From Escherichia coli (GTDB taxonomy: Bacteria > Pseudomonadota > Gammaproteobacteria > Enterobacterales > Enterobacteriaceae), in assembly GCF_003334385.1 (NCBI RefSeq), contig NZ_QOWN01000050.1: a DNA stretch of 33,016 nucleotides. The stretch is one strand, 5' to 3'. The translations under genes and the position numbers were made by a program. Every line of letters starts with the position of its first letter. Positions within the stretch are counted from its first letter, which is position 1. Shown one piece after another: positions 27,554-28,118 of the stretch. Under the pieces are notes generated by a model. That model saw only the letters and a program-made list of their open reading frames with translations. It had not been told where the DNA came from and searched no databases.

Positions 27554-28118
27554 CAAGTTTATCCAGCGCCAGATTGAGTTCAACAATGTTGACAACCGGC
27601 TGGCCGATATATTTCACCAGCGGTTGTTGGCTGTATTTTGCGATCAGTTGCGTGAGCTGTTCAACGCTGAGATTACGCGCTTTCGCCACGCGTGGGATTT
27701 GCCAGGCCGCCGCTTGCGGGGTGATATTATTGTCCAGCCCGCTTGCCGATGCCGTCACCAGTTCAACCGGAACGCTCGCGCTGGCATCCGGGTTAGCGGC
27801 CCGTAATGCAGCAACGCGTGCGGCTATTAGTTTATCCAGCTCAGGGTTACTGACCGCCAGATTGCTCCCGCCAGAAGCCTGTGGATTATAGGGCATTTCT
27901 GCCGTTGCCGACGGGCGACCATGAAAATAGCCGTTGCCGGTAAAATTCTGCCCGATTAATGCCGAACCGCGCACCGTATCACCTTCACGAATCAACGAAC
28001 CATTGGCCTGCTAGGGAAACCACCATTGCCCCAGTACGGTGGTCAGCAGCGGGTAAACGCCGCCAGTAATCAATAACAGAAAGATAAATGTTGATAATGC
28101 CGGACGTAATCCACTCAT
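27546..28118 (-). pseudogene. kdpC: KdpC subunit of the Kdp ATPase with a premature amber codon at position 36
   Basis: From ATG (28116..28118) the frame reads [39 protein letters not shown](TAG, + strand CTA at 28011..28013)[13 protein letters not shown]... and then continues in frame to the normal C-terminus. Confidence 0.8.

Follow-up and report, generated by a model that had tools for sequence, protein, structure and literature searches.

A kdpC pseudogene in a natural Escherichia coli clone, caused by an inherited amber mutation with a proposed origin at a Dcm site

One natural clone of Escherichia coli very probably carries kdpC as a pseudogene, which arose by a genuine, inherited nonsense mutation for which we propose an origin at a Dcm methylation site. 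The analysis covers a stretch of 33,016 nt, referred to as the window. In the window, kdpC is located between kdpB and kdpD, and the operon order is F-A-B-C-D-E as judged from ORFs and from the K-12 and SCU-104 annotation transferred by alignment. An uninterrupted 190-codon kdpC frame is absent, as codon 36 is TAG. The features that are relevant for this gene are the following.

27546-28118, minus strand: kdpC reading frame, broken at codon 36 and otherwise K-12-like except for E190K
28011-28013, minus strand: amber codon TAG in place of the Trp36 codon (TGG) of kdpC
28011-28118, minus strand: N-terminal ORF that remains (35 codons and the stop), which comprises only the single transmembrane helix; other assemblies list it as a gene of 35 aa
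27546-27974, minus strand: downstream in-frame ORF of 142 aa with start codon GTG49; annotated as a 142-aa KdpC fragment in contigs L018 and L030-L038
28011-28015, plus strand: former Dcm site, CTAGG here as compared to CCAGG in all non-amber relatives

The premature amber codon which the original prediction had placed at codon 36 of kdpC is indeed present. Around the stop, the minus strand reads CAA TGG TGG TTT CCC TAG CAG GCC AAT, with the TAG at 28013-28011, and translation of 27546-28118 on this strand extends from MSGL to LDKLDK*, the stop at codon 36 being preceded by GQWWFP. The codon had been attributed to a single G>A change on the coding strand, equivalent to C>T at 28012 on the plus strand. 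This is borne out by alignment to kdpC from strain MG1655: the K-12 reference has C at 28012 and the window has T. There are just two differences to MG1655 within kdpC and both are C>T on the plus strand, one at 28012 (W36amber) and the other at 27551 (E190K). It had further been claimed that the frame continues to the normal C-terminus. The frame is open up to its end, but the last residue is Lys while K-12 has Glu. When Trp is restored at position 36, 189 of the 190 residues are identical to the solved KdpC structure 6hra_C (E = 9e-123). Judged by its reading frame, the gene is filed here as a pseudogene allele and not as a functional kdpC.

The kdpC amber is a real, derived and inherited mutation, since independent assemblies match the window and since sister contigs carry C at 28012. 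Contig L018 (Logan, run ERR1948963) matches window positions 18481-32679 with 100% identity, and this stretch of 14.2 kb includes the amber and the promoter deletion described below. The same contig is found in 6 samples, and the gene caller splits its kdpC into pieces of 35 aa and 142 aa. Assembly GCA_012738655.1 (L007) is 100% identical to window positions 1472-22878, including both lesions in potE. The KdpD variant of the window occurs on 5 further NCBI contigs according to exact-protein lookup, and the ChiP variant of the clone, which represents a GATC-site change, was found on 8 public contigs. Sister contigs from the same lineage (L010-L017) differ by 2-5 bases, have C at 28012 (codon TGG) and code for an intact KdpC of 190 aa. 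Among complete genomes the allele was not encountered: a 61-nt probe centred on the TAG matched 1,811 complete E. coli genomes, none of them exactly and each with at least one mismatch, no identical genome was retrieved by a 701-nt search among 5,418, and W36amber was found in none of 5,426 complete genomes.

Compared to E. coli K-12 MG1655, the window shows 99.94% sequence identity, with 18 substitutions (17 of them transitions) and 2 one-base indels. The nearest complete RefSeq genome is that of SCU-104, and no complete RefSeq genome is identical. Four close genomes and nine sister contigs served to sort the differences from K-12, which fall into three groups. These are common polymorphisms, a lineage set which is common to SCU-104 and includes the kdpD ATG>ATA change (equivalent to KdpC E190K) as well as KdpD G200E, and the following seven clone-specific changes.

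12214: ChiP D248G
12704: synonymous change in chiP
20801: potE W201opal
20824: potE +1 frameshift
26025: KdpD Q510R
28012: KdpC W36amber
32046: 1-bp deletion upstream of kdpF

The predominance of transitions and the two indels in nucleotide runs had suggested a mutagenised K-12 derivative, or one with a mismatch-repair mutator phenotype, as the main story. This was rejected, as 13 of the 20 differences from MG1655 are polymorphisms that also occur in other wild genomes. The clone's own branch (12214-32046) shows only 5 transitions and 2 one-base run indels, with 4 of these 7 changes being disruptive, and thus resembles what might be expected for a mismatch-repair-deficient or recently bottlenecked lineage. 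Six variants are common to SCU-104 and are missing in K-12, ML35 and Z1323HEC0011, and each of the six is C>T when read on the plus strand. The idea of a strand-specific C>T burst was nevertheless set aside, because at least one of the six, NagA A354T, is a widespread allele (2,357 index blocks, with unrelated lineages being returned).

The changed base at 28012 corresponds to the inner (5-methyl) cytosine position of CCAGG. Two of the five clone-specific substitutions affect such 5-methylcytosine positions, of which there are 180 in 33 kb (P = 2.9e-4). Only two Dcm sites exist in kdpC, at W36 and W139, and a stop codon is possible at both of them. We propose that Dcm methylates the inner cytosine of the CCAGG site in kdpC, methylation in the clone being an assumption because dcm and vsr are located outside of the 33-kb contig. 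The 5-methylcytosine at 28012 would then have been deaminated to thymine. The T:G mismatch which results from such a deamination is normally corrected by Vsr very-short-patch repair; at 28012 it would have escaped this repair, and replication would have fixed the C>T change, which converts TGG to TAG on the coding strand.

The closest parallel are the amber hotspots in lacI, which were described by Coulondre, Miller, Farabaugh and Gilbert (1978) for the second C of CCAGG and which are over-represented about tenfold. In both genes, a G:C>A:T change at the second C of CCAGG makes TAG. In addition, the kdpC base is affected recurrently in independent lineages, and the second Dcm site of kdpC behaves alike. 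The two cases differ in that the kdpC allele represents standing variation in natural isolates while the lacI data come from a laboratory mutant collection. Also, nonsense alleles at non-Dcm positions occur in kdpC, and the kdpC hotspot is a putative one, deduced from sequence. The allele may thus be viewed as a clean natural counterpart of the 1978 laboratory result on methylated CCAGG amber hotspots.

The exact 35-aa truncated KdpC is found in 134 index blocks of the public collection. Among the loci listed, W36amber occurs on at least four kdp haplotype groups, with 9 to 108 substitutions between the groups in a 5.6-kb comparison. The complete genomes EC11, ST540 and 300709 are the nearest ones to the three amber groups other than that of the window. 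Each of these is identical to its amber group over 3,101 nt except for a single base, having G instead of A in the middle of codon 36. In the window's own haplotype group, the nearest non-amber contigs are two bases away. The presence of the same stop on several E. coli backgrounds calls for caution when shared nonsense alleles are used as markers of common descent.

Truncated KdpC products were looked up for the two Dcm sites (W36, W139) and for three neighbouring non-Dcm sites (W33, W32, Q140). The counts listed here are index blocks, followed by the blocks with a longest contig of >5 kb; index blocks are not independent events and the counts are inflated by clonal expansion.

W36 stop, Dcm site: 134 index blocks, 87 with longest contig >5 kb
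W139 stop, Dcm site: 88 index blocks, 45 with longest contig >5 kb
W33 stop, not a Dcm site: 75 index blocks, 14 with longest contig >5 kb
W32 stop, not a Dcm site: 26 index blocks, 2 with longest contig >5 kb; many short-contig matches are contig ends only
Q140 stop, not a Dcm site: 32 index blocks, 1 with longest contig >5 kb; many short-contig matches are contig ends only

Among the W139 stop alleles listed, 6 of 8 have TAG, and these alleles are distributed over several backgrounds. The direction of the block counts fits what a methylation hotspot would predict, with the reservation that blocks are not independent and that W33 has been struck repeatedly. Judged from these alleles, the loss of kdpC is evidently tolerated and is in itself a recurrent event. 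Such tolerance probably accounts for part of the recurrence, hotspot aside, because nonsense alleles at the non-Dcm codon W33 occur on at least three backgrounds.

Many unrelated metagenome or short-read contigs stop exactly at kdpC codon 32 (L043-L045) and at codons 139-140 (L059-L065). These contig ends inflate the lookup counts of truncated products, and they may reflect strain mixtures or within-sample polymorphism. When 61-nt probes were used for two control variants in chiP (12214 and 12704), no exact match was found in complete E. coli genomes.

Recurrence could also be the result of positive selection for the loss of Kdp, be it due to the cost of the pump, to its toxicity or to some other benefit, with the hotspot being just a convenient route. 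Five kdpC nonsense sites are represented in public genomes, among them the non-Dcm sites W32, W33 and Q140, and amber lineages often carry a second kdp lesion (the operator deletion in the window; in L030 it is kdpD that is split, in L031 kdpE). A harmful effect of unregulated KdpFABC at high K+ is reported in one study (PMC9651954). However, with hundreds of thousands of E. coli sequenced, each tolerated one-step nonsense change is expected to turn up a few times anyway. The excess is concentrated at the two sites with methylation, a pattern not predicted by selection alone, and the absence of W36amber from all 5,426 complete genomes means that the allele stays rare. We therefore consider selection to be a rather unlikely explanation.

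Another idea is that W36 and W139 are methylation-driven on/off sites, so that a quasi-reversible and possibly selected Kdp polymorphism would exist instead of simple decay. Dcm-dependent deamination would switch Kdp off at a raised rate. According to published work, Vsr promotes the change from CTAGG to CCAGG, so that reversion of the amber could be raised in rate as well. We regard this as improbable.

A third possibility is that the amber allele is not a new mutation but was imported from a different E. coli with the same amber, through homologous recombination. A comparison of flanking SNPs shows no difference between any of the amber haplotypes over at least 465 bp around the site, so that a short imported patch would be traceless. 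A patch of 465-1,856 bp does fit the flanking SNPs, because kdpC is so conserved; it would, however, have to be accommodated between the retained lineage-specific markers at 27551 and 29408. In addition, a separate import would be needed for each of the four backgrounds, three of which are identical to a non-amber genome except for one base, while one known hotspot accounts for all four in a simpler way. Recombination thus appears quite improbable, and it is simpler to assume that a known hotspot was changed four times, in one step each.

KdpC is a single-helix subunit, the periplasmic domain of which is positioned over the KdpA selectivity filter, and it has been described as being needed to stabilise the complex. 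It seems reasonable to deduce a Kdp-negative genotype from the amber, because the stop leaves only a 35-residue N-terminal helix while the functional domain is periplasmic. Translation is expected to end after 35 residues, leaving the membrane helix alone. The periplasmic domain would be absent, or would be made by reinitiation at GTG49 as an anchorless cytoplasmic fragment. The 142-aa ORF starting at GTG49 is a possible candidate for such a reinitiation product without membrane anchor, and GAAGGTGAT is found at 27978-27986, ahead of this codon. A 149-aa fragment with a TTG start was also looked up and no record was found. As a consequence of the truncation, KdpFABC could probably neither assemble nor work. 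The kdpC stop codon normally overlaps the kdpD start, therefore early termination should lower translational coupling into kdpD, and the ribosome flow into the overlapping start would be lost. The allele could persist as Kdp would be dispensable wherever potassium is supplied by Trk and Kup.

Working Kdp might still be obtained if the amber were sufficiently suppressed by a supE-like tRNA or read through by leaky termination at UAG-C. The frame beyond the stop is fully intact, which is, however, expected for any recent mutation. The stop is directly followed by C, and a C after the stop codon represents a weak termination context. One publication (PMC7918605) proposes that readthrough of in-frame stops is common in bacteria. 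The window ends in repeats on both sides, the left one (1-271) being the glnU copy of the tRNA-Gln genes and the right one (32721-33016) an rhs element. Because the contig ends in a repeat, inside the tRNA operon, glnV (supE) is missing from the window; the contig terminates ahead of glnV and glnX, where supE would be located. The three tRNA genes which are present in the window match K-12 and have the wild-type anticodons UUG, UAG and CAU, so that a tRNA with a CUA anticodon is not among them. Amber suppressors are rare in wild isolates, and a suppressor tRNA is unlikely in this one. Moreover, the other disabling changes in kdp as well as the opal codon and the frameshift in potE are beyond rescue by any amber suppressor. 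Suppression or readthrough to an extent that permits working Kdp is thus very improbable, and the strain is most likely Kdp-negative through ordinary gene decay, as its kdp sequences suggest.

It is hardly conceivable that the true codon is TGG and that the amber results from methylation-motif errors, accompanied by homopolymer indels, in a long-read-only assembly. Of the 5 clone-specific substitutions, 3 affect a base that is methylated in a Dcm or Dam motif, and the two indels are found in runs of A, which resembles motif-linked basecalling errors. A basecalling artefact at methylation motifs is, however, effectively ruled out by identical bases in independent assemblies, as L007, L008 and L018 have the two indels as well as the five substitutions, as far as these fall within their range, and as the same amber allele is seen in many further assemblies.

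Ordinary decay of the Kdp system does not appear to be restricted to kdpC. The other parts of the locus are as follows.

28127-31960, minus strand: kdpF, kdpA and kdpB, which precede the broken kdpC and have intact frames
24869-27553, minus strand: kdpD, with intact frame; G200E is lineage-wide, Q510R is clone-specific (26025)
27551-27556, minus strand: kdpD start ATG>ATA (27553-27551; the same base causes KdpC E190K), with TTG one codon upstream (27556-27554)
32043-32058, minus strand: KdpE operator TTTATA-CTTT-TTTACA with a 4-bp spacer, half-sites as defined in PMC3264566

One base pair is deleted in a T run of the operator spacer, the length of which is thereby 4 bp and not 5 bp. This deletion is clone-specific, the 5-bp spacer being retained in 13 other loci. 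The ATA-start allele of kdpD is common to SCU-104 and to contigs in 219 index blocks, including ones with a divergent kdpD haplotype (L013, L016). Gene callers start KdpD either at the ATA (894 aa; RefSeq) or at the TTG (895 aa; other callers). The KdpD Q510R exchange (ARYRE[Q>R]RTRH) is located immediately past the membrane segment, probably in the arginine cluster that has been linked to the balance of kinase and phosphatase activity. Several parts of the clone's Kdp system look impaired, namely kdpC by its stop, the operator by its spacer and kdpD by its start codon, and the whole system in the clone appears to be decaying. Broken regulators were also observed in other lineages with kdpC nonsense alleles: kdpD is split into 320+566 aa in L030 and into 327+566 aa in L042, and kdpE is split into 128+76 aa in L031. 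These splits would be consistent with whole-system decay, assembly error being a possible alternative.

Laboratory K-12 kdp-null mutants (e.g. TK2499 from the Epstein laboratory) resemble the clone in having lost a kdpFABC structural gene, with the expectation that growth is not possible at very low K+ without Trk and Kup. In the clone, by contrast, a spontaneous point nonsense mutation is found in a wild-type background, together with changes in regulatory regions. No phenotype is expected in ordinary media, because Trk and Kup are presumably intact. The case also resembles ordinary pseudogene formation in conditionally dispensable genes, with a single disabling change, further lesions in the same pathway and a broken operon nearby (potE). 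It differs from this in that the mutational route is identifiable and recurrent, and there is nothing else of substance that sets it apart. In a literature search for kdpC nonsense alleles, no mention of kdpC was found among the top matches. The kdpC allele adds one more case to two familiar categories, the pseudogene of a conditionally dispensable operon and the 5-methylcytosine amber hotspot. Of some interest is that one and the same stop codon is found in parallel in different E. coli lineages; as a phenomenon, this is described in textbooks and does not raise a new biological question. For practical purposes, kdpC should be annotated as a pseudogene in this genome, and the strain is predicted to be devoid of high-affinity K+ uptake.

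Changes were also observed in neighbouring genes. In potE (minus strand), the frame is shifted by +1 at 20824-20826, where the coding strand has GGTTTCT instead of GGTTCT, and 23 nt downstream the codon for W201 of the original frame is changed from TGG to TGA (20801). Both lesions were seen in independent assemblies, and speF, which is located upstream, is intact. In chiP (plus strand), D248G (12214) alters the A of a GATC (Dam) site, and the synonymous change at L411 (12704) is a second C>T-type transition at a methylated Dcm position, CCTGG>CCTAG. The DUF2625 gene at 19085-19735 (minus strand) is intact in the window, with TGG at 19527, while MG1655 has TAG and the gene is annotated there as a pseudogene with an internal stop.
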